DNA of 64,000 bases, from sequence record OK322699.1; one strand, written 5' to 3'. Both the position numbers and the translations under genes were made by a program. Below the pieces are notes generated by a model that made no database searches, was not told the DNA's origin, and saw only the letters and a list, made by a program, of their open reading frames with translations. Origin of the DNA: Escherichia phage Sa157lw. Positions 2,082 through 27,722 of this stretch are shown here, one piece after another; within the stretch, counting starts at the first letter, position 1; each line of letters opens with the position of its first letter.

Positions 2082-5000
2082 ATGGCCAACAAACCAACAC
2101 AGCCTCTTTTCCCTTTGGGTTTAGAAACTTCGGAGTCTTCGAACATAAAAGGCTTCAACAACTCCGGCACCATAGAGCATTCCCCTGGTGCAATATTGAC
2201 GTTCCCTGAAGATACTGATGTTGCGGGTCTCCCATCTTCTGTGCGTTACAATCCTGATAGTGATGAATTCGAAGGTTATTACGAAAATGGCGGGTGGTTG
2301 TCTTTGGGTGGTGGCGGAATACGCTGGGAAACGCTCCCATACGCTCCCTCCAGCAATCTGTTAGAAGGGCGCGGCTATCTCATTAATAACTCCACTGGGA
2401 CTTCTACGGTGGTTCTTCCTTCCCCTACGCGCGTTGGTGACTCGGTTACAATTTGTGATGCCTATGGTAAATTCGCGACGTATCCATTGACCGTATCTCC
2501 AGCGGGAAATAACCTGTACGGCTCCACCGAAGATATGACGATATCCACCGATAACGTGTCGGCGACTTTCACTTGGTCTGGTGCTGAGCAGGGTTGGGTT
2601 GTTACATCTGGTGTTGGCCTCGGTCAAGGTCGTGTGTACAGTCGAGAGATTTTCACTCAAATTTTAGCATCTGATACAAATGAAGTGACTCTCAACATCC
2701 CTCCGACAATTGTGGACGTGTACACTGATGGGAAACGCCTTACAGAATCCAAATATTCTTTAAATGGAAACGTAATCACTTTCGACCCTTCTTTACCTGC
2801 TGGCACTGAATTGCAGGTAATAGAATATACTCCGATTCAGTTAGGTACTGGCGGCGGGGGTTCGGGCGCTTCTGCAATCACCTGGATTTACAATGGCGGA
2901 TCCGCTATCGGCGGCGAAACCGAAATAACGCTAGACATCGTTGTAGATGATGTTCCGGCTATTGATATAAACGGGTCTCGTCAGTACAAAAATCTTGGAT
3001 TCACGTTCGACCCATTGACGAGTAAAATCACTCTGACGCAAGAACTGGAACCAGAAGATGAAGTTGTTGTGGTTATAAATGGGACACCAAACATTTATAA
3101 CCAGATCGATCGTTCTTTACAGGAAGTTGCTCGCGCCTACAATTTTACAAATGCTCAAGTTATTTTGAGCAACGATTATACTTCTGCACTGGATAATAAA
3201 GTCGTTATTTATGATACGACATCCCAACGTTCTTGGGGGATTCCATCTGGAATTCCAGCAGGTTCTACAGTGGTTTCCGTCAATGGGGATCAACTGAAAT
3301 ACAAAAATGGATCAACTGAAACCACTGTTACATTGGTGAGCGTACCAGGTAGTGCAGAGAAGTTGAAGAACGATCTGGCGTCGAACTCTGGCGCGGGCAT
3401 GTTGAAAACTTCTAGAGGTGATACCGTAGAAGAAGAATTGACTTTTATTAATCAGAATATGGTCGTTCAAATTTCAGATTTCGCGAGCCTTAGAACTTTA
3501 GTGCCAGCCACAGCGGGCATCCGAGTCAAATTGAAAGGTTATTATTCTGGTTCTGAAATCGGTGGCGGAGAATTCATTTCCGTCGCTGGTGATGCTGTTG
3601 ATGATGCTGGGATGATTGCTCGAGTGTCAAGCAGCTTTTATTGGAAGAGAATTATCGACAAACATATTACTCCTGGTATGTATGGCATCAAAGGGAATCT
3701 TCCAGAAGATCCGGCAGTGAAACTGAACGCTATGTTTACGGCTGCGGCTGCGGCTAACGCTTATGTCTTACTGAACGATGTTGATACTCTGGTCTGTAAA
3801 AGCCCTGTCGTGATCCCAGCACATTCATTAGTGTACGGCAACAAACGGACCATATTGAAACGTGATGCATCGTTGTCATATGCTAATGATTTCTTGACAA
3901 TTATGAATGATTCATATGTCAAGGGGATCTATGTTGATGGTAGCCGTTTAGATTCTCAGACTCCTCTAGAAGCAGTTTTGGTGCGCATCGCTGGGAATGT
4001 GACTATCCATAAGAGCGAGATCCGAAACAATGCTGGCTATGGCGTTGTTGGTAACGCAGTCCCTGGCATTCGTATCACCAAGAACATTTTTTCCAACTTC
4101 GCCAAAGGTTGTGTGGCTATGTTTGGCGACGGAACGGCGACGAGTGATGATCTGCAAATTAATGATAACAGATTCTTTAACCTGGGCGCGGGAACCATTT
4201 ATGTTGGCGGTTACTCAAACTTCCTTGTCGACAAAAACGTCGGAAGAGGCACTTACGTGGGTTCTCCAGGAAACCGTCTGTATGTTGTGACCAATACCAA
4301 CGGGACTATCACCCAAAGCGCTGGGCCAGATTTTGGGGCGCTGAAAACGGGTATGTTCTTTGTATTGCCTGGTGGTTCTGAACATATGATAACTGCTGTC
4401 AACAGCCTTACAAGTGTGACAGTAACCCCACCACCGCCGTCGAACGCCACAGTTCGTGCAATCGCAGGGACAGGGGATCTTCTGGGCATCCAATCATGCT
4501 CCTACGGCACCATCAGCCGTAACAACCTGACCGATTGTGTGACTTACGGAACTGGTGGAGGCACGATGGAGGGGAGCACTCTGGGTTGCAATTATGTCAC
4601 TTGGGAAGACAACTTCATCCGCAACACAGGTAAGAACGGAATCAACGTCGGGCAATCAGGTGCTGGGGTCGCCACGTGTTCTATCCTGAGGAACACTCTG
4701 ATACAGGTTGGTAACGGCGGTCAGGGTGTTGGCCCAGCGTATCTTCTGCCTTGGTTCGATACGGTAGGTATCGCTCTGTATCAGGGAAACCCAGGTTATA
4801 TGGCGAATATGGACGTCAGTGATAACAACGTCTCTACATGGTCTGGCGATCTGAATGACGGCGCTGCTTGGTTTGGTATGAGCGGTTGTACGGAAGCCAC
4901 TGTGACTTGTACAGGCAACAAATCTTCTGGTTATTCCGACGGCTATGTTCGTGGAGATATATTAGAAGTCACGTTGACAGGTTATGGTACAGGGGCGGCT

Positions 5001-5255
5001 GCGACTTCATTCGTTAGTGATGGTGAGTCTATACAGATAACCGTTCAAACAGGTACTTCACCAACAGCTTCTCCTTATTTTTCAGTGCGGAAGGCGATCC
5101 GCACCCGCCATCAACCGATGATAACGGCGCAGATCGTCACCACAACTGGGAACATGTCTCATTGTTGGGGTATGCAATCTAGTACAGCAGGAAACTGGAT
5201 GGTGGGTCAGAATACAACTCCTTCAGGGGTCACGACGTATTACGCAAAAGGGTAA
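2082..5255 (+). CDS. tailspike protein (1057 aa), T4 gp10-like N-terminal domains plus parallel beta-helix
   Basis: Shares an internal module with the 926-aa tailspike (DRSLQEVARAYNF...VVIYDTTSQ vs DRSIQEIARSANV...VVYDSAAQ); C-terminal NxGxG beta-helix-type repeats. Confidence 0.7.
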   Translation: MANKPTQPLFPLGLETSESSNIKGFNNSGTIEHSPGAILTFPEDTDVAGLPSSVRYNPDSDEFEGYYENGGWLSLGGGGIRWETLPYAPSSNLLEGRGYLINNSTGTSTVVLPSPTRVGDSVTICDAYGKFATYPLTVSPAGNNLYGSTEDMTISTDNVSATFTWSGAEQGWVVTSGVGLGQGRVYSREIFTQILASDTNEVTLNIPPTIVDVYTDGKRLTESKYSLNGNVITFDPSLPAGTELQVIEYTPIQLGTGGGGSGASAITWIYNGGSAIGGETEITLDIVVDDVPAIDINGSRQYKNLGFTFDPLTSKITLTQELEPEDEVVVVINGTPNIYNQIDRSLQEVARAYNFTNAQVILSNDYTSALDNKVVIYDTTSQRSWGIPSGIPAGSTVVSVNGDQLKYKNGSTETTVTLVSVPGSAEKLKNDLASNSGAGMLKTSRGDTVEEELTFINQNMVVQISDFASLRTLVPATAGIRVKLKGYYSGSEIGGGEFISVAGDAVDDAGMIARVSSSFYWKRIIDKHITPGMYGIKGNLPEDPAVKLNAMFTAAAAANAYVLLNDVDTLVCKSPVVIPAHSLVYGNKRTILKRDASLSYANDFLTIMNDSYVKGIYVDGSRLDSQTPLEAVLVRIAGNVTIHKSEIRNNAGYGVVGNAVPGIRITKNIFSNFAKGCVAMFGDGTATSDDLQINDNRFFNLGAGTIYVGGYSNFLVDKNVGRGTYVGSPGNRLYVVTNTNGTITQSAGPDFGALKTGMFFVLPGGSEHMITAVNSLTSVTVTPPPPSNATVRAIAGTGDLLGIQSCSYGTISRNNLTDCVTYGTGGGTMEGSTLGCNYVTWEDNFIRNTGKNGINVGQSGAGVATCSILRNTLIQVGNGGQGVGPAYLLPWFDTVGIALYQGNPGYMANMDVSDNNVSTWSGDLNDGAAWFGMSGCTEATVTCTGNKSSGYSDGYVRGDILEVTLTGYGTGAAATSFVSDGESIQITVQTGTSPTASPYFSVRKAIRTRHQPMITAQIVTTTGNMSHCWGMQSSTAGNWMVGQNTTPSGVTTYYAKG

Positions 5256-20073: not shown

Positions 20074-20754
20074 ATGAGCAATATGTCAGAAAGGTTACTT
20101 GCGACGCTAGACGCGGTGACTGCCAGAGATGAAGTTGGTAAGGAGGCGATGGAAGCCGTCTCTCCACGTCCAGGTATTGACTTCGATGAAAAAACGGGCG
20201 AGTGGTTTGGTGAACGCCCAGAAGGTTATCAGCCGATTCCAGAACCTCCATCATTGGAAGATATCGCGTCCAAAGAATCCAAGGTTCCGGAGTTTGCGGA
20301 TACTGATGCCACAACAGATTACAAGCGGATACGCGATACAACATACGCCATGCAGGAAGCCACGATGTTCATGATGGGGCAAGCTGCTAAATTAGCTGCA
20401 TCTACCGAAGCCCCAAGAGCGTTTTCCGTGTTTCGTGAATTGGGCGAACTCATGCGCGGCCTGAACAAAGACCTGATGGAAAACCAAAAAACCATCAAAG
20501 CTGTGACAGGGGATAAAGAACCGCCGACTGATGACACAACCGTGGATGTTACCACTTCACCCGACGGGACCACAACAGTATCTGTTGGGAAGAAAGCGAG
20601 ATCTTCGCGCGATTTATTGAAAACGATCGAAGATGCACGCCGCCGCGCTGAAGAACGCGCCCAGGCAAAAGCCACCCAACAAACCGAAGATGAAATTATC
20701 GACGGTGAAACGGTTGACGTGAAGGAAGAAGACGATGGCGTATCAGAAGCGTGA
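20074..20754 (+). CDS. terS: terminase small subunit gp16
   Basis: ATG 20074 with GGAGG SD (ORF-track start 20068 is TTG). Central segment YAMQEATMFMMGQAAKLAASTEAPRAF resembles T4 gp16; acidic C-terminus. Confidence 0.7.
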   Translation: MSNMSERLLATLDAVTARDEVGKEAMEAVSPRPGIDFDEKTGEWFGERPEGYQPIPEPPSLEDIASKESKVPEFADTDATTDYKRIRDTTYAMQEATMFMMGQAAKLAASTEAPRAFSVFRELGELMRGLNKDLMENQKTIKAVTGDKEPPTDDTTVDVTTSPDGTTTVSVGKKARSSRDLLKTIEDARRRAEERAQAKATQQTEDEIIDGETVDVKEEDDGVSEA

Positions 20755-22945
20755 TATAGAATATGCTCCGATAAAAACGGGGTTTAAAATCGACGACGTG
20801 AAATTGCGTATGGACCAGACGTTCATGCGCAAGCCTTCTGTGCGCGCTCCACGAGTCGAGTTGATGCTAACAGATGAACAAGAAGACGAATTTGTTGAAT
20901 GTTCAATGGACGCGCATTACTTCGCTGCCAATTACTACAAGATAACGACAATCGATAAAGGCTTCATCCTTTTCGATATGCATGATTATCAGAAACAATT
21001 ATTTCACGATTTTCAAGATTATCGTTTCAATGCCGTTGTCCAGGCGCGTCAGTCCGGTAAATGCGTCCGTGGTGATACTCTTGTTTATGTCTATGATACA
21101 GTCAGTCAACAAGAGTTGCATCTCACCATAGAAGAGCTTCACAAGCGCTTCGAAGGACCGAACCATGCTGTGCCACTGAATACCATTGGCAACCACAATA
21201 AGTTTGTAGACAGCCGTTTCGGGAAACGATATTTTGTTGAGTCCGACACTGGCTGGGTTCCGGTTATTGCCGCTCATAAAACGAAAGAATACGCTGAATA
21301 CGTGGTCAGGACTGAAACCGGACGCACAATTCATGTCGCAGATGAGCACATGTTCTTCAATGAATATGGGCGCGAAGTATTTGCTAAAGACATGGAGGCC
21401 GGAGATGCCATAATGACCCAGGAGGGAATAGAATTCATCTCTGAGATCTGGGAGACTGGTGAGTACCACCACATGTATGACTTGCAAGTCAAGTCCAGCG
21501 ATCAACGTTATTACACGAATGGGTTCCTCAGCCATAATACCACGGTCGTGGCTGCGTTTCTTCTTTGGTATGCGATGTTCCACTCAGACAAAGAAATCGC
21601 GGTACTGGCAAACAAAGAGAAACAAGCGATTGAAATTCTTGACCGTATCAGGAAGGCGTATCAGGACCTCCCATTCTTCCTTCAGCAGGGTTGTGAGAAG
21701 TTTGGTTCTACACTGATAGAGTTTGAGAACGGCTCTAAGATATATGCTTATGCAACGTCTTCGGACTCTATTCGTGGTCGTTCTGTATCTCTCTTGTACG
21801 TGGACGAAGTCGCATTCATCGAAAATGACTTTGAATTTTGGGAATCAACATTCCCAGCGATCGCATCTGCTGATACTTCACGTTGTATTCTGACCAGTAC
21901 TCCGAAAGGCCAGCGAGGGTTGTTCTATGATATCGTCACCAAAGCAGACCCGCGCCATCCGCAATACAACGACTTCCATCTTACCGAAGTCCCTTGGTAC
22001 AAGGTTCCGGCGTACACCAAAGACCCTGATTGGGAAACCAAACAACGCGCTCGTCTGGGGGATGCCCGTTTTGACCAGGAATTTGGAATCAAGTTCCGTG
22101 GTTCTGTAGGTTCATTGATACCAGCCAAATGCTTGGATAAAATGACATCCAAGTTATATCGAGAGCCTAATGAGTTCACCAAAATTTACAAGGAATATGA
22201 CCCGCAACGCATCTACTTCGGGATCGCAGATACGGGGAAAGGTGTTGAAGGAGATTATTCGGTTCTGACAATTCTGGATATAACGGAATACCCGCATGTC
22301 ATAGCGGCCAAGTACAGGAACAATACAATACCTCCGATGATGTATGCATACACGATAGCTGATATGTGTACTGAATACGGGGAATGCCCTGTCCTTGTCG
22401 AGACGAATAACGACGTTGGTGGACAGGTTATCACGATCTTGTATCAAGAAATTGAGTATCCAGAGATCATATTCACGTCGACGGATAACAAAGGGACAGG
22501 GAAACGGATTGGTGGTCGTAAACCAGAGCCAGGCATTAACACCAACAGGAAAGTGCGATCTATTGGTTGTGCTAACCTGAAAGCGCTTATTGAGAAAGAA
22601 ATGTTGGTGATTGAAGATCAAGACACGATAGATGAACTCAGCACATTCGTGTTCCGTGGTGCGCGTTATGAAGCAGATGATGGATGTCACGACGACTGCG
22701 TTATGCCGTTGGTATTATATTCTTGGGCAGTTAAACAAGAATGGTTCAGTGATCTGACTTCTACCAGTATTTCTCAAGACATGAGAAATAGAATGTCTTC
22801 GACTGAGTCACAACAAGTATTCCCATTTGGTGGTTTAGTCGTGGGAGACACTCCATCTGGAACTGAGCATCTCCCTGGGTTCGGTGGTGTTCAAGTCTTC
22901 GACGAACGTTCAGGGATGACAATGGACGAGTGGTTTAAGAATTGA
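20735..22945 (+). CDS. terL: terminase large subunit gp17, interrupted by an intein
   Basis: Aligns with T4 gp17 on both sides of a 159-aa insertion: Walker A appears as QSGK...TTVVAAF; downstream YAYATSSDSIRGRSVSLLYVDE matches the T4 Walker B region. Confidence 0.9.
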   Translation: MAYQKRDIEYAPIKTGFKIDDVKLRMDQTFMRKPSVRAPRVELMLTDEQEDEFVECSMDAHYFAANYYKITTIDKGFILFDMHDYQKQLFHDFQDYRFNAVVQARQSGKCVRGDTLVYVYDTVSQQELHLTIEELHKRFEGPNHAVPLNTIGNHNKFVDSRFGKRYFVESDTGWVPVIAAHKTKEYAEYVVRTETGRTIHVADEHMFFNEYGREVFAKDMEAGDAIMTQEGIEFISEIWETGEYHHMYDLQVKSSDQRYYTNGFLSHNTTVVAAFLLWYAMFHSDKEIAVLANKEKQAIEILDRIRKAYQDLPFFLQQGCEKFGSTLIEFENGSKIYAYATSSDSIRGRSVSLLYVDEVAFIENDFEFWESTFPAIASADTSRCILTSTPKGQRGLFYDIVTKADPRHPQYNDFHLTEVPWYKVPAYTKDPDWETKQRARLGDARFDQEFGIKFRGSVGSLIPAKCLDKMTSKLYREPNEFTKIYKEYDPQRIYFGIADTGKGVEGDYSVLTILDITEYPHVIAAKYRNNTIPPMMYAYTIADMCTEYGECPVLVETNNDVGGQVITILYQEIEYPEIIFTSTDNKGTGKRIGGRKPEPGINTNRKVRSIGCANLKALIEKEMLVIEDQDTIDELSTFVFRGARYEADDGCHDDCVMPLVLYSWAVKQEWFSDLTSTSISQDMRNRMSSTESQQVFPFGGLVVGDTPSGTEHLPGFGGVQVFDERSGMTMDEWFKN
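21062..21538 (+). mobile_element. mini-intein (159 aa) inserted in the terminase P-loop
   Basis: Begins CVRGDTLV, ends GFLSHN followed by +1 Thr; block B-like TGRTIHVADEH; block G-like YDLQVKS...NGFLSHN; no endonuclease domain. Confidence 0.8.
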
Positions 22946-22948
22946 TCA

Positions 22949-22959
22949 CTAAATATCTT
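22949..22959 (+). promoter_or_regulatory. late-promoter motif variant CTAAATATCTT
   Basis: About 40 nt upstream of gp18 ATG. Confidence 0.4.
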
Positions 22960-22997
22960 TCAAATTGAGCGAAACTCTACCGAGAAGGAATAACATT

Positions 22998-24893
22998 ATG
23001 GCAACTCAAAGCTTCAGCGTTGCGCCGTCCGTACAGTGGACTGAGCGTGATGCCACGCTTCAGACTTCTCCGTCCGTGGTTGTTCAGGGCGCGACAGTCG
23101 GCAAATTTCAATGGGGTGAAGTCGAACTCCCAGTGCTGGTGACTGGTGGTGAGACGGGTTTGGTGAAGAAATTCTTCAAACCTAATGACAGCACTGCGAC
23201 AGATTTCCTTGTGATTGCAGACTTTTTGTCTTACAGCTCTATGGCATGGGTCACTCGTGTTGTTGGTCCTCTGGCCAAGAACTCTGTCACCAAAGGCCAG
23301 ACAGCCATCACGATCAAAAACAAGCTGGATTTTGAAACAGCAAGTCCGTCAGCGTCTATCACTTGGGCTGGTCGTTATCCAGGATCTCTGGGGAATGACA
23401 TCGCCATCAATGTTTGTGACTCCGCTGGATTCCCGACATGGGAATTCCGTAACAACTTTGCGTACGCACCTCAGTCTGGTGAATTCCATGTTGTGGTTGT
23501 AGACAAAGTTGGGCGCATTACTGACTCTGCTGGTGCGGTTGGTCAGGTTGACCGTATCTCTGTTTCTGGCACGGCAACCGCAGCTGGCACCATCAGTGTG
23601 GCGGGTGAAGATATCGCATATCTGGATACTGATACTCCGGCCACTTTGGCGACCAAAATTGGCGCGGCGCTGACGGCGCTAACAGATGTTTATTCTTCTG
23701 TCGTTGTTAAGTCTAACACTGTCATCGTGACCCATAAAGCCATTGGTCCCCAGACAGTTACTGCTATTGTTCCAGATGATAAGGGGCTGACTGCAACCGC
23801 CGTGATTACCACTGTTGGCGCATCTGGTTCTATTATCGAAAAATACGAACTCATGCAGAACACACAGGGTTCCAAAAAGTCCGATGGCGCGAATGCGTAC
23901 TTCAAAGATGTCATCAATGATACATCAAATTGGGTGTACACCTTCGCCACCGCTCTGGCCGCAGGTGTTGTTGAATTAGAAGGCGGCGTAGACGACTACA
24001 ATATCAACCGTGTCGCGGCTATCCAAGTTCTGAACAACGCCGAAGCATATGATGCGAAGCCAGTATTTGCATACTGTGAAGAGTTGATTGAACAACAGGC
24101 ATTAATCGACTTGTCTACCGAGCGAAAAGACACCGTTTCCTTCGTGTCGCCTTTGCGTGATACTGTGGTCGGCAACCGTGGCCGTGAGATGGACGATGTG
24201 GTCGCTTGGCGTGAAAGTCTGGTGCGCGACTCCTCCTATTTCTTCATGGACGACAACTGGGCATACGTGTACGATAAATACAACGATAAGATGCGCTGGA
24301 TCCCTGCTTGCGGCGGTACAGCGGGTGTTTGGGCACGTAGTATTGAAATCGCGGGTATCTACAAATCTCCTGCGTTCCACAACCGTGGCAAATACAACAA
24401 CTACAATCGAATGGCGTGGTCTGCGTCTTCCGATGAACGTGCCGTGTTGTACCGCAACCAGATTAACAGCATCGTGACCTTCTCCAATGAAGGTATCGTG
24501 TTGTATGGTGACAAAACTGGTCTGACTCGTCCGTCTGCTTTCGATCGTATCAATGTTCGCGGTCTGTTTATTATGGCAGAACAGAACATCGCTGCAATCG
24601 CCAAATATTACCTTGGTGAGAACAATGATGCGTTCACTCGCAGTCTGTTCAGCAACGCTGTTCGTCCTTATATTCGCCAGCTGGCAAATATGGGTGCGAT
24701 CTACGATGGTAAAGTCAAGTGTGACGAAGATAACAACACTGCTGACGTTATTGCGGCAAACCAGATGGTCGCTGGTATCTGGCTGAAACCGGAATACAGC
24801 ATCAATTGGGTGTATCTTGACTTTGCTGCAGTTCGTCCGGATATGGAGTTCTCGGAAATTGAATCCGGCGGCGGCATCGTTGCTGCTTCTTAA
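22998..24893 (+). CDS. gp18: tail sheath protein gp18
   Basis: ATG 22998 with GAAGGAA SD; GKFQWGEV and DKYNDKMRWIP motifs match T4 gp18 (GKFQWGP, DKYNDVNRWVP). Confidence 0.9.
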   Translation: MATQSFSVAPSVQWTERDATLQTSPSVVVQGATVGKFQWGEVELPVLVTGGETGLVKKFFKPNDSTATDFLVIADFLSYSSMAWVTRVVGPLAKNSVTKGQTAITIKNKLDFETASPSASITWAGRYPGSLGNDIAINVCDSAGFPTWEFRNNFAYAPQSGEFHVVVVDKVGRITDSAGAVGQVDRISVSGTATAAGTISVAGEDIAYLDTDTPATLATKIGAALTALTDVYSSVVVKSNTVIVTHKAIGPQTVTAIVPDDKGLTATAVITTVGASGSIIEKYELMQNTQGSKKSDGANAYFKDVINDTSNWVYTFATALAAGVVELEGGVDDYNINRVAAIQVLNNAEAYDAKPVFAYCEELIEQQALIDLSTERKDTVSFVSPLRDTVVGNRGREMDDVVAWRESLVRDSSYFFMDDNWAYVYDKYNDKMRWIPACGGTAGVWARSIEIAGIYKSPAFHNRGKYNNYNRMAWSASSDERAVLYRNQINSIVTFSNEGIVLYGDKTGLTRPSAFDRINVRGLFIMAEQNIAAIAKYYLGENNDAFTRSLFSNAVRPYIRQLANMGAIYDGKVKCDEDNNTADVIAANQMVAGIWLKPEYSINWVYLDFAAVRPDMEFSEIESGGGIVAAS

Positions 24894-24899
24894 AAGATC

Positions 24900-24927
24900 A
24901 ACCCCGCTTCGGCGGGGTTTTCCTTTA
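24900..24927 (+). terminator. rho-independent terminator (AACCCCGC-TTCG-GCGGGGTT plus T-run)
   Basis: Same stem as terminators at 7418, 12135, 31257, 47268. Confidence 0.65.
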
Positions 24928-24949
24928 TCCCACATATTTGAGTTATTGA

Positions 24950-25408
24950 ATGATATACGCATACAAAATTGAAATGGTTTGTAATGGAAAGGTCTACATC
25001 GGTGTGACCAATGACCCACAACGAAGATATGATCAGCATTTTGCGAATGCCTTTCATCATGGCGTCCAAAGTGAATTGTATGACGCCATGCGTAAGTATG
25101 GAACATCTGGATTTACTTTCGTTGTAATTGCTCAGACCGATGAAGTCCATAAATGGGAATTAGAGAAGCAACTCATCGCTCAATATAATTCTTATGAGAT
25201 GGGTTACAACATGAATAAAGGCGGTAATGATGGAAGTCATATGCTGGGTAAAACTGCAGCAAAATTGACATCCACAGGTGAACACATTGGTCTTGTTTCT
25301 CTCATAGATCCCCGTTGGGAATTGTGTGAAATCGAACCTGTTTCAAGTAATGTTCATCATAGTTTCGATCTTTCTTCTATGAAGATTAAAAGATTGACGA
25401 CTAATTAG
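24950..25408 (+). CDS. GIY-YIG endonuclease (putative homing endonuclease)
   Basis: N-terminal IYAYKIE...GKVYIGVT...R...H...E fits the GIY-YIG catalytic motif; inserted between the sheath and tube genes. Confidence 0.65.
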   Translation: MIYAYKIEMVCNGKVYIGVTNDPQRRYDQHFANAFHHGVQSELYDAMRKYGTSGFTFVVIAQTDEVHKWELEKQLIAQYNSYEMGYNMNKGGNDGSHMLGKTAAKLTSTGEHIGLVSLIDPRWELCEIEPVSSNVHHSFDLSSMKIKRLTTN

Positions 25409-25438
25409 AATTGTGTACTCTTATTTGGAGATATAAAA

Positions 25439-25972
25439 ATGGCGACAGTCAATGAGTTTCGCGCAGCCATGTCACGAGGGGGCGGCGTACAACGCCAACA
25501 CCGCTGGCGTGTGACTGTAAACTTTCCTTCTTTTGTTGCTGGTTCCGACACAATTCGCGACGTGTCCTTGCTGGCTGTAACTACCAACACCCCGACAGGT
25601 CAGCTGGGTGAAATTCTGGTGCCCTGGGGTGGTCGTGAACTTCCATTCCCAGGCGACCGTCGTTTCGAAGCACTGCCTGTAACATTCATTAACGTTGTGA
25701 ACAACGCGCCGTACAACGCATTTGAAGTGTGGCAGCAATTCATCAATGGTAGTGAAAACAACCGTGCCAGCGCGAATCCAGATGATTATTTCCGTGATAT
25801 CATCATGGAGCTTCTGGATGCGAATGACAATGTCACCAAGACATGGACTTTGCAGGGTGGCTGGCCTCAAAACCTCGGCCAATTGGAACTCGATATGTCT
25901 GCGATGGACTCTTATACACAGTTCACCGTCGATCTGCGTTATTTCCAAGCCGTGTCAGACAAATCTTTATAA
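25439..25972 (+). CDS. gp19: tail tube protein gp19
   Basis: C-terminus GGWPQNLGQLELDMSAMDSYTQFTVDLRYFQ vs T4 GLWPTNVGELQLDWDSNNEIQTFEVTLALDYW. Confidence 0.8.
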   Translation: MATVNEFRAAMSRGGGVQRQHRWRVTVNFPSFVAGSDTIRDVSLLAVTTNTPTGQLGEILVPWGGRELPFPGDRRFEALPVTFINVVNNAPYNAFEVWQQFINGSENNRASANPDDYFRDIIMELLDANDNVTKTWTLQGGWPQNLGQLELDMSAMDSYTQFTVDLRYFQAVSDKSL

Positions 25973-26039
25973 TGTCCTCGGTGCTGGGGGAATCATATTC
26001 CCCCTCACTAATTACAAGAAAATGTTGAGGACTTAGATC

Positions 26040-27722
26040 ATGGCTGGATACGGCAGAGGGTTCTTCGGTTTGTTTGGCGGCGGCGGTTTGGTGAACGCTA
26101 AAGTCGACACCGATAAGTTAGCCCAAAAACAAGATGAACGGTTGCTAACCAAAGCGACAGTTGTTGCTCTGGACGACGCTCAAGACGGTTCTATAATCCT
26201 TCAGGGTGGTGCGAACACCTACAACTATGTTGGCGTTGAAAGTGAACTTCTCAGCGTTAAAACAGTTGTGGAAGAATATCAGTCCATGGCTCAACAGCCT
26301 GAAATTCGCAAAGCGGTGGACATTATTGTCAATGATGTTGTCACCTGTGAGGAAGATGAAACTCCAGTGACAGTAAACCTTGACAAAGTTGAAGGGATAT
26401 CTGATACTGTTAAAGAATCTATCACTGAATGCTTCAAAGAAGTTATGCACTTGATGGACTTTGACAATACGGCATATCAGAAGATCCGGAAATGGTATGT
26501 TGACGGTCGACAAGCATATCATGTCATCGTTGATCCCACGAATAAAAAAGGCGGGATCAAGAAATTAGTTATGCTTGATTCTCGTTGCATTCGTCCTGTC
26601 TATATCGTTGAGAAGGCGATGCGTGAAGGCGGTATTGAAGCAATAGAATCCGTAACATTGAAGTATTATTACAACCCGAATTATAATCGAAACCAATTCA
26701 CTGGCCAATCTGGTACTTCCCAGAACTTCCAGCCTTCACAGCAAGAACTCGTATTCGATGACGAAAGCATTGTTTACATCGATAGTGGTGAAGAGCCATT
26801 GGCCAATGGTATTGTCCCAGGCCTTTTAAATCCTGCTATCCGTCCGTTGAACAACCTGGTTACGACTGAAGATGCGACTGTAATTTATGCCATCACTCGC
26901 GCCCCTGAGAAACGCGCATTCTATCTTGACGTCGGTACTCTCGGTAAGAAATCTGCTGAAGAATACATGACCATGATGATGGGTAAATTCAAAAACCGCA
27001 ACGCATATGACCGCACCACTGGTAAGATAACAGGTAATGCCCATCTTATGGGTATTGCAGAGGATTATTGGTTGCCGCGCCGCGAAGGTCAGAATGCTAC
27101 AGAGATCGCGACTGTTGGGGGTGGGAATCAATTGGGTGAAATGGATCACGTGAACTATTTCCGTGAAAAACTCTATGATGCTCTAATGATCCCTAAGAGC
27201 CGCCTCCAAGAGGAAGGATCTATTAACATTGGGGGTTCTAACCTTGCGGAGATTACACAGGAAGAGCTGCGTTTCAGCAAGTTCTGTGCTGGGTTACGTC
27301 GTCGTTACTCCCATTTCTTTATGGAGTTTTTACGTCGCCAATTAATTTTGAAAGGCGTGACTGACGAAAAAGATTGGAATGAAAAAATCAAGCCGTTTAT
27401 TAAGTTTGAATTCACTTCTGATAGCTATATTCGTGAGCAACAAGAAAACGCCATATTAAATGATCGCCTGGCTTCTCTGAACACTGTTGAGCCTTTTGTT
27501 GGTTCTATATTCTCCATCGATTATGTCATGCGGAATGTTCTGCGTATGTCAGACGAAGAAGTTAAAGAACAACAGGCTAAGATCGCGGAAGAGAAGAAGA
27601 AAGGTCTCTATCCGAAGGTTCAAGCAGATGAAACTGGCAATTATAGTGGTTCAGATGTTAGTCCGTTGAAGTTTAAACCTGAGACTCTCCCATTCTCCGG
27701 TTCAACAGACGATAGTATTTAA
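26040..27722 (+). CDS. gp20: portal vertex protein gp20
   Basis: ITRAPEKRAFYLDVG...GIAEDYWLPRREGQNATEIATVGG matches T4 gp20 ITRAPDRRVWYVDTG...[24 protein letters not shown]. Confidence 0.85.
   Translation: MAGYGRGFFGLFGGGGLVNAKVDTDKLAQKQDERLLTKATVVALDDAQDGSIILQGGANTYNYVGVESELLSVKTVVEEYQSMAQQPEIRKAVDIIVNDVVTCEEDETPVTVNLDKVEGISDTVKESITECFKEVMHLMDFDNTAYQKIRKWYVDGRQAYHVIVDPTNKKGGIKKLVMLDSRCIRPVYIVEKAMREGGIEAIESVTLKYYYNPNYNRNQFTGQSGTSQNFQPSQQELVFDDESIVYIDSGEEPLANGIVPGLLNPAIRPLNNLVTTEDATVIYAITRAPEKRAFYLDVGTLGKKSAEEYMTMMMGKFKNRNAYDRTTGKITGNAHLMGIAEDYWLPRREGQNATEIATVGGGNQLGEMDHVNYFREKLYDALMIPKSRLQEEGSINIGGSNLAEITQEELRFSKFCAGLRRRYSHFFMEFLRRQLILKGVTDEKDWNEKIKPFIKFEFTSDSYIREQQENAILNDRLASLNTVEPFVGSIFSIDYVMRNVLRMSDEEVKEQQAKIAEEKKKGLYPKVQADETGNYSGSDVSPLKFKPETLPFSGSTDDSI

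Follow-up and report, generated by a model that had tools for sequence, protein, structure and literature searches.

What maintains a small endonuclease gene between two tail genes of a phage when its product appears to lack a DNA-binding domain? Such a gene is found in Escherichia phage Sa157lw (OK322699.1), within the 64,000-nucleotide stretch analysed here, which we call the window. The original prediction described it as a free-standing GIY-YIG endonuclease gene inserted between the tail sheath and tail tube genes, and suggested that it could be decaying. Here we analyze the protein, its insertion site, the related alleles and the selection acting on them, and weigh the possible explanations for its persistence.

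The gene and its phage

The open reading frame encodes 152 residues, starts with ATG and occupies positions 24950-25408 on the plus strand. It matches the Pfam GIY-YIG family PF01541 over residues 2-87 (E=2e-10, 41.2 bits, cut-off 22.6). The phage family phrog_5123, 'homing endonuclease with GIY-YIG motif', covers its full length (E=1.4e-93). The gp18-like tail sheath gene is located upstream (22998-24893, plus strand). It is identified by Pfam sheath domains and phrog_23, and Vi01_160c maps to it. The mechanical open reading frame of the sheath begins at a TTG at 22965; annotated relatives all use the ATG equivalent to 22998, which gives 631 aa. The gp19-like tail tube gene is located downstream (25439-25972, plus strand; Pfam PF06841, phrog_45) and corresponds to Vi01_158c. 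The endonuclease gene is a separate reading frame between the sheath stop and the tube start, and an Rfam scan of 22900-26100 found no group I intron or other RNA family. Its GC content is 38.3%, below that of the neighboring sheath (49.6%) and tube (50.6%) genes. The gene was predicted to carry its own Shine-Dalgarno sequence. A GAG is indeed present 7 nt 5' of the ATG, but the match is weak and consists of GAG alone. In a phmmer search with 16 family members against open reading frames of at least 60 aa in the window, no paralogue was found besides the gene itself.

The 3 kb from sheath to tube (22965-25972) are 99.8% identical to Salmonella phages AR2819 and Sajous1, and 99.2-99.3% identical to Vi01, Marshall, Maynard and others. 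Identity to AR2819 is 100% over 24300-25972. The sheath-tube identity to AR2819, Vi01 and Marshall places the Sa157lw stretch in Kuttervirus (Vi01-like, Ackermannviridae). The gene corresponds to Vi01_159c (CBW38027.1), CBA120 orf195 and PhiSH19 F416_gp127, which are found at the same position with 95-99% protein identity. The Vi01 record annotates Vi01_159c as 'GIY-YIG endonuclease', and the same name is given in the PhiSH19 paper to a 152-aa product encoded between tube and sheath (PMC3220722). In the CBA120 paper, orf195 is one of two putative homing endonucleases, 'a homolog of T4 segD' (PMC3184105). The Marshall announcement reports a large-terminase intein and six homing endonucleases (PMC3853055). 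Since they appear in GenBank records and papers of 2010-2013, the gene and the terminase intein were already known as annotation. The PhiSH19 and CBA120 papers annotate only, and note neither the missing DNA-binding domain nor selection. The additions made here are modest, namely a conserved form without a DNA-binding domain and a well-populated series of alleles.

The original prediction also counted the terminase intein as a second selfish element in this part of the genome. The intein is confirmed: TerL residues 110-268 (21062-21538, in the TerL gene at 20735-22945) form a mini-intein of 159 aa. Its insertion interrupts the Walker A P-loop between GK and T (GK/C...HN/T; CVRGD...FLSHN/T, slashes marking the junctions). 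However, it contains no endonuclease domain and is already published. It also looks fixed in the family, because TerL has a length of 734-736 aa in the relatives examined, which belong to Kuttervirus, Agtrevirus, Limestonevirus and Miltonvirus.

A GIY-YIG nuclease without a DNA-binding domain

The first 92 residues (24950-25225) form the GIY-YIG catalytic domain, identified by PF01541, structure prediction and conserved residues. They are predicted by AlphaFold with pLDDT above 90. The best Foldseek matches of the protein in the PDB are the I-TevI catalytic domain structures 1mk0 and 1ln0 (TM 0.82-0.83, rmsd ~2 Å). Loss of catalytic residues, which the original prediction had named as evidence against it, was not found. 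Y5, Y16, R26, H30, E72 and N87 align to I-TevI Y6, Y17, R27, H31, E75 and N90, and all six are invariant in an alignment of 11 family sequences. In a wider alignment of 84 sequences, Y5, Y16, H30, E72 and N87 are invariant and R26 is at least 90% conserved. Sequence and structure matches, through the fold and the Tyr, Tyr, Arg, His, Glu and Asn residues, assign the protein to the GIY-YIG superfamily.

Residues 93-130 (25226-25339) form a family-specific linker with the motif STGEHIG.VSL.DPRW. This region is predicted by AlphaFold as a β-hairpin (E101-106/E112-117) and a short helix, with pLDDT ~70. The motif, in the form STGE.IG.V...DPRW, is present in every full-length relative at the locus, and A104, T109, G114, D120 and W123 are invariant. 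The C-terminal tail, residues 131-152 together with the TAG stop (25340-25408), is weakly constrained and predicted to be disordered. Residues 138-152 have pLDDT below 50, and no NUMOD3 or helix-turn-helix domain follows.

A word-index search with the single protein retrieved 9 close relatives, and a profile search reached the full-length relatives. Those at the same locus include KE27 XCH40957.1 (243 aa), Menlow AUG87764.1 (230 aa) and XF4 'F-LimII' (ASD51526.1). A type on the minus strand in GOT and SW16-7 has 262-264 aa. The full-length proteins share the gap, the catalytic domain and the linker motif with the short protein, with 26-53% identity over the shared part. They add a NUMOD3-like helix and a β-hairpin/helix-turn-helix domain, whereas the short protein stops before these. 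Their Pfam NUMOD3 matches are weak. The model of one 242-aa relative (P0019) contains a helix at 143-157, and a β-hairpin and helix-turn-helix at 165-205 with pLDDT 84-90. Its first Foldseek match is the I-TevI catalytic domain, followed by the modular endonuclease I-HmuI (E=3.5e-3).

The original prediction suspected that a full DNA-binding domain is missing. Three observations bear this out. The C-terminal region present in the 230-264-aa relatives is absent. The TIGR01453 'group I intron endonuclease' model matches the short protein at profile positions 5-93 of 215, below the cut-off. The net charge of the short protein is ~ -2, compared to +5 to +14 for the part after residue 92 in most full-length relatives. 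The profile search that had been proposed found GIY-YIG, and no NUMOD or helix-turn-helix match was found in the protein by the Pfam search. The modular arrangement of I-TevI and Seg proteins, in which a linker joins the catalytic domain to a C-terminal DNA-binding domain, is not seen in the 152-aa protein. Local alignments of the 22-28-aa tail to the NUMOD3 region and C-terminus of full-length relatives gave nothing significant against shuffled sequences, in a weak test whose substring began too early. At the nucleotide level, a resemblance of '...AGATTGACGACTAATTAG' to '...AGATTGAATACCACGGGTTGGCAACTAATTAG' is an unproven impression.

Comparison with known systems places the protein near several phage nucleases. 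I-TevI, the endonuclease of the T4 td intron, has the same catalytic fold and catalytic residues. It is intron-encoded, has 245 aa and contains a zinc-finger linker and a C-terminal DNA-binding domain. Unlike I-TevI, the 152-aa protein has no intron, zinc finger or DNA-binding domain. Like the T4 Seg genes, its gene is free-standing, intergenic between conserved genes and polymorphic among related phages. Seg proteins have ~200-230 aa, with DNA-binding regions. The Pfam SegE_GIY-YIG family matches relatives weakly (E~1e-3), and no T4-type phage is found among the tblastn matches of the 152-aa protein at E<=1e-8. T4 endonuclease II (DenA) is a small stand-alone phage GIY-YIG nuclease with no separate DNA-binding domain. 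Its resemblance to the 152-aa protein is a lead, and DenA is not known to be associated with any hot spot of homing.

The insertion site

We compared the sheath-tube region in 20 relatives. The gap is empty in five Agtrevirus phages (Ag3, MK-13, Gloob, P46FS4 and EspM4VN), where a 78-bp spacer contains the sheath stop, a hairpin, ATTTCATTGAAAGCA and CTAATTAGAATTGTGTAAC...GGAG...ATG. In Ag3, P46FS4 and EspM4VN, the empty gaps read hairpin-ATTTCATTGAAAGCA-CTAATTAGAATTGTGTAAC...ATG. Comparison with these three gaps, together with the dip in GC content, indicates that the inserted DNA extends approximately from 24930 to 25400. The five empty sites support the predicted insertion, and locate it between the native sheath terminator and the native sequence upstream of the tube gene. 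The tube gene of EspM4VN appears to be frameshifted near its 5' end (2170-2245 of the region) and is annotated from an internal GTG, as 462 rather than 534 bp. An error in the sequencing or assembly of that record is the probable cause.

The predicted terminator upstream of the gene is present, and forms a hairpin at 24900-24919, in which 8 bp of stem enclose a TTCG loop, followed by a T-run. However, it belongs to the sheath gene and not to the insert, because relatives with an empty gap have the hairpin as well. It is found at the equivalent position in the empty-site Agtrevirus phages and in all occupied alleles. The complete terminator, AACCCCGC-TTCG-GCGGGGTT followed by the T-run, spans 24900-24929 on the plus strand. 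At least two main alleles of the sheath terminator hairpin exist, AACCCCGC-TTCG-GCGGGGTT and GCCCTC-TTCG-GAGGGC, and their distribution does not follow genus boundaries. The second accompanies KE27-type endonucleases, and is also found in Miltonvirus genomes with the short gene only and at empty Agtrevirus sites.

On the other side, the native tube-upstream sequence CTAATTAGAATTGTGTAC...GGAG... (25401-25438, plus strand) contains a motif also present in empty-site phages. It supplies the last codons and the stop of the endonuclease gene, as well as the Shine-Dalgarno sequence of the tube gene. All gap occupants terminate within the native motif CTAA(A/T)TAGAATTGTGTA. Since this motif is also present in empty sites, the inserted reading frames borrow their last codons and stop from phage sequence. 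Endonuclease genes read the motif CTAATTAGAATTGTGTA (25401-25417) in two frames, as ...T N and stop in the Kuttervirus short form, and as ...L I R I V and stop in Miltonvirus 3M and the full-length forms. We also considered CTAA(A/T)TAGAATTGTGTA as a repeated late-promoter motif. It has one match in the window, which is not above chance and gives no support for a role as the tube promoter. The late promoter of this phage family is stated as unidentified in the CBA120 paper (PMC3184105).

Occupants of the sheath-tube gap

Several different genes occupy the gap in other phages. The short gene is found alone in Vi01 and PhiSH19, in Taipeivirus 0507-KN2-1 and IME250, and in Miltonvirus 3M and Kevin. 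In ECML-4, phiMAM1 and the metagenome contig L018, a GIY-YIG gene of 225-240 aa (240 aa in ECML-4 and phiMAM1) is located directly upstream of the short gene on the plus strand; in ECML-4 its stop overlaps the ATG of the short gene. GOT combines the short gene with a 262-aa GIY-YIG gene on the minus strand. A full-length gene is found alone in KE27, Se_EM4, Menlow and Limestonevirus XF4, and, on the minus strand, in SW16-7. No short gene is present in Agtrevirus or Limestonevirus, nor in the Kutterviruses KE27 and Se_EM4.

In Limestonevirus Ds25CZ, the gap contains a 596-aa Hef-like gene on the minus strand, with DUF7487 and DUF559-like regions. LIMEstone1 also has a Hef-like gene. About 50-25 bp before the tube start at 5202, Ds25CZ retains ACCACTGGTTGGCAGCTAATTAGAATTGT, a footprint that encodes TTGWQLIRIV and corresponds to the 3' end of an XF4-type GIY-YIG gene. 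This mere 3' footprint indicates that decay does occur at the gap. The conspecific XF4 has an intact GIY-YIG gene (2501-3196 of its sheath-tube region) and no Hef-like replacement. From these sequences, Ds25CZ and XF4 represent an allele replacement within one species. The LIMEstone paper describes a Hef-like F-LimVIII on the opposite strand beside the tube gene, between tube ORF144 and ORF146 (PMC3296691). ORF146 is called 'portal' in the text of that paper and sheath in its Table 2 (PMC3296691). A study of Dickeya phages noted that homing endonuclease positions stay fixed while their sequences vary (PMC5582154).

We used tblastn to count the alleles in sequence records, in which GenBank/RefSeq duplicates are included. 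The short form is present in ~196 records at 80% identity or more. The KE27/Menlow type is present in 57 records, at one place per record, and the minus-strand type in 30 records, at one place per genome. Short-form relatives on metagenome contigs were all found at the sheath-tube locus. Presence and absence are polymorphic at a fixed site, with five empty Agtrevirus phages and at least five occupied states elsewhere. Judged from these alleles, homing endonucleases have a hot spot in the sheath-tube gap of Ackermannviridae. Its alleles, whether empty, occupied once, occupied twice or replaced, form a compact natural series in which co-conversion tracts can be seen.

Purifying selection on the short gene

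We calculated dN/dS by the Nei-Gojobori method and compared non-synonymous and synonymous changes by Fisher tests. For the short gene, dN/dS is 0.09 between Sa157lw and 0507-KN2-1 (dS 1.46), 0.11 between Sa157lw and IME250, 0.12 between KN2-1 and IME250, and 0.08 between Kevin and L018. The comparisons span dS 0.4-1.5. Fisher p values range from 1e-14 to 1e-38, reaching 1e-23 for Kuttervirus versus Taipeivirus and 1e-38 within Miltonvirus. By region, dN/dS is lowest in the linker (0.03-0.07), followed by the catalytic domain (0.06-0.23) and the tail (0.15-0.8).

The gene aligns over its full length as a single piece in all but one of the ~196 records, which cover three genera. The exception is SE14 (NC_049512.1, 90980-91434), the sole two-piece tblastn alignment, with 455 nt compared to 456-459. 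It is possibly a frameshift or a sequencing error. The protein measures 151-156 aa across the three genera. A 174-aa call (P0007) is the same reading frame with an upstream start.

A dN/dS of about 0.1 and the intact copies contradict a pseudogene, and also a mere DNA spacer. The suggestion that the gene is decaying is not upheld, with intact copies in three genera, dN/dS of ~0.09-0.12 between Kuttervirus and Taipeivirus or within Taipeivirus, and the linker as the most constrained region. Purifying selection, intact reading frames and invariant catalytic residues lead us to reject a decaying pseudogene. As far as sequences can tell, the short gene is kept by purifying selection and is no pseudogene.

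Exchange at the locus

Divergence at the locus is mosaic. In the core of the gene (25000-25299), 4 of 300 positions differ between Sa157lw and PhiSH19. In the flanks, the same two phages have 12-18 differences per 100 bp in the sheath gene and 3-10 per 100 bp in the tube gene. The dS is 0.14 for the short gene and 1.05 for the 3' part of the sheath gene. That the flanks have diverged far more than the short gene within Kuttervirus agrees with exchange rather than with vertical descent alone. In comparisons between genera, short gene and flanks show about equal divergence, in agreement with long residence at the locus. Taipeivirus 0507-KN2-1 and Menlow have near-identical tube genes (dS 0.024), whereas their endonuclease alleles differ (151 versus 230 aa).

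ECML-4 and GOT are near-identical to Sa157lw over the sheath gene except for its final 100-300 bp. There, in the interval 24700-24950 that includes the terminator, 23 and 16-18 mismatches per 100 bp are found, adjoining the extra full-length endonuclease gene. These divergent sheath 3' ends beside full-length genes resemble co-conversion tracts, which would place a cleavage site of the full-length enzymes near the sheath 3' end. Such Seg-like co-conversion of flanking markers is seen for the neighboring full-length genes. Taken as a pattern of sequence differences, the mosaic divergence fits ongoing gene conversion at the locus.

Possible functions of the short gene

The explanation that we favor, with a probability of roughly 0.6, is that the short gene is a selfish gene of homing-endonuclease type that still functions and is under selection despite the loss of its DNA-binding domain. 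It is a member of a locus-specific GIY-YIG homing-endonuclease family in the Ackermannviridae sheath-tube gap, inserted between the native sheath terminator and the tube-upstream sequence, with its stop codon borrowed from the latter. For its expression, nuclease activity, target and homing, we propose the following. Read-through of the sheath terminator may yield late transcripts from which small amounts of the protein are made. During mixed infection, the protein would nick or cleave alleles of the region that are empty or differently occupied. Repair would then copy the gene and nearby sheath or tube markers, by homing or by marker exclusion as for the T4 Seg proteins. Because mixed infections may shuffle the adjoining tail genes, the locus is relevant to engineering therapeutic Kuttervirus phages.

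Several observations argue against active homing. The protein has no recognizable DNA-binding domain and a slightly negative net charge, and the isolated I-TevI catalytic domain neither binds nor cuts DNA specifically. Full-length endonuclease genes invade regardless, and are located directly upstream in many genomes. The low divergence among Kuttervirus copies could reflect ordinary recombination or hitch-hiking on neighboring endonucleases. In addition, the Shine-Dalgarno sequence is weak and a terminator is located upstream of the gene.

A second explanation, possible but considerably less probable, is that the nuclease has been domesticated. Homing would be lost, and the nuclease-plus-linker module would be retained for the benefit of the phage. 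It could interfere with invading full-length endonucleases or competitor phages, or act as a non-specific oligomeric nuclease like T4 endonuclease II. The strong purifying selection, strongest on the linker, is consistent with this, as are the constant length in three genera, the strict fidelity to the locus and the lack of a DNA-binding domain. The between-genus divergence, similar to that of the flanking genes, is as vertical descent predicts. However, the gene is dispensable, as its absence from two genera and from KE27 and Se_EM4 indicates, and it does not block invasion by full-length endonucleases. The much lower divergence of the Kuttervirus gene than of its flanks points to exchange. 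Moreover, searches with PADLOC and NCBIfam for a non-homing function gave homing-endonuclease models alone, over the catalytic domain only, with no match to a defence or other non-homing family.

The combination of strong selection, a linker hairpin as the most constrained part and a lost domain makes a new role conceivable. A GIY-YIG nuclease kept without a DNA-binding domain since before the Kuttervirus-Taipeivirus-Miltonvirus split may have acquired one, although on these sequences we regard this as doubtful. It could be a minimal endonuclease targeted through its linker alone or by a partner protein, or an 'anti-homing' modulator of adjacent full-length endonucleases. The short form is a rare derivative of a homing endonuclease that lacks the DNA-binding domain and is clearly under selection. 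It lends itself to studying how free-standing endonucleases survive the loss of a domain.

Compared to the selfish, still-functional gene that we favor, a truncated and non-functional homing endonuclease en route to loss is very unlikely. The protein is ~80-110 aa shorter than its relatives at the locus and lacks their DNA-binding region, its tail is poorly constrained and predicted to be disordered, and the footprint in Ds25CZ shows that decay happens at this site. However, dN/dS is ~0.1 at near-saturated dS, the catalytic residues are conserved, and, apart from one possible frameshift, the reading frame is intact in the ~196 records. The comparisons among Kuttervirus, Taipeivirus and Miltonvirus cannot be explained by one allele that spread recently.

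Least probable, and hardly to be credited, is that the DNA alone acts as a passive plug, its protein being irrelevant, which interrupts the target of other endonucleases or keeps sheath and tube expression apart: the insert does part the terminator from the tube-upstream sequence, and occupied homing sites are usually immune to the resident endonuclease, but a plug predicts dN/dS near 1 and frequent frameshifts, whereas 0.1 and almost none are seen, and full-length endonuclease genes still insert beside the short gene.
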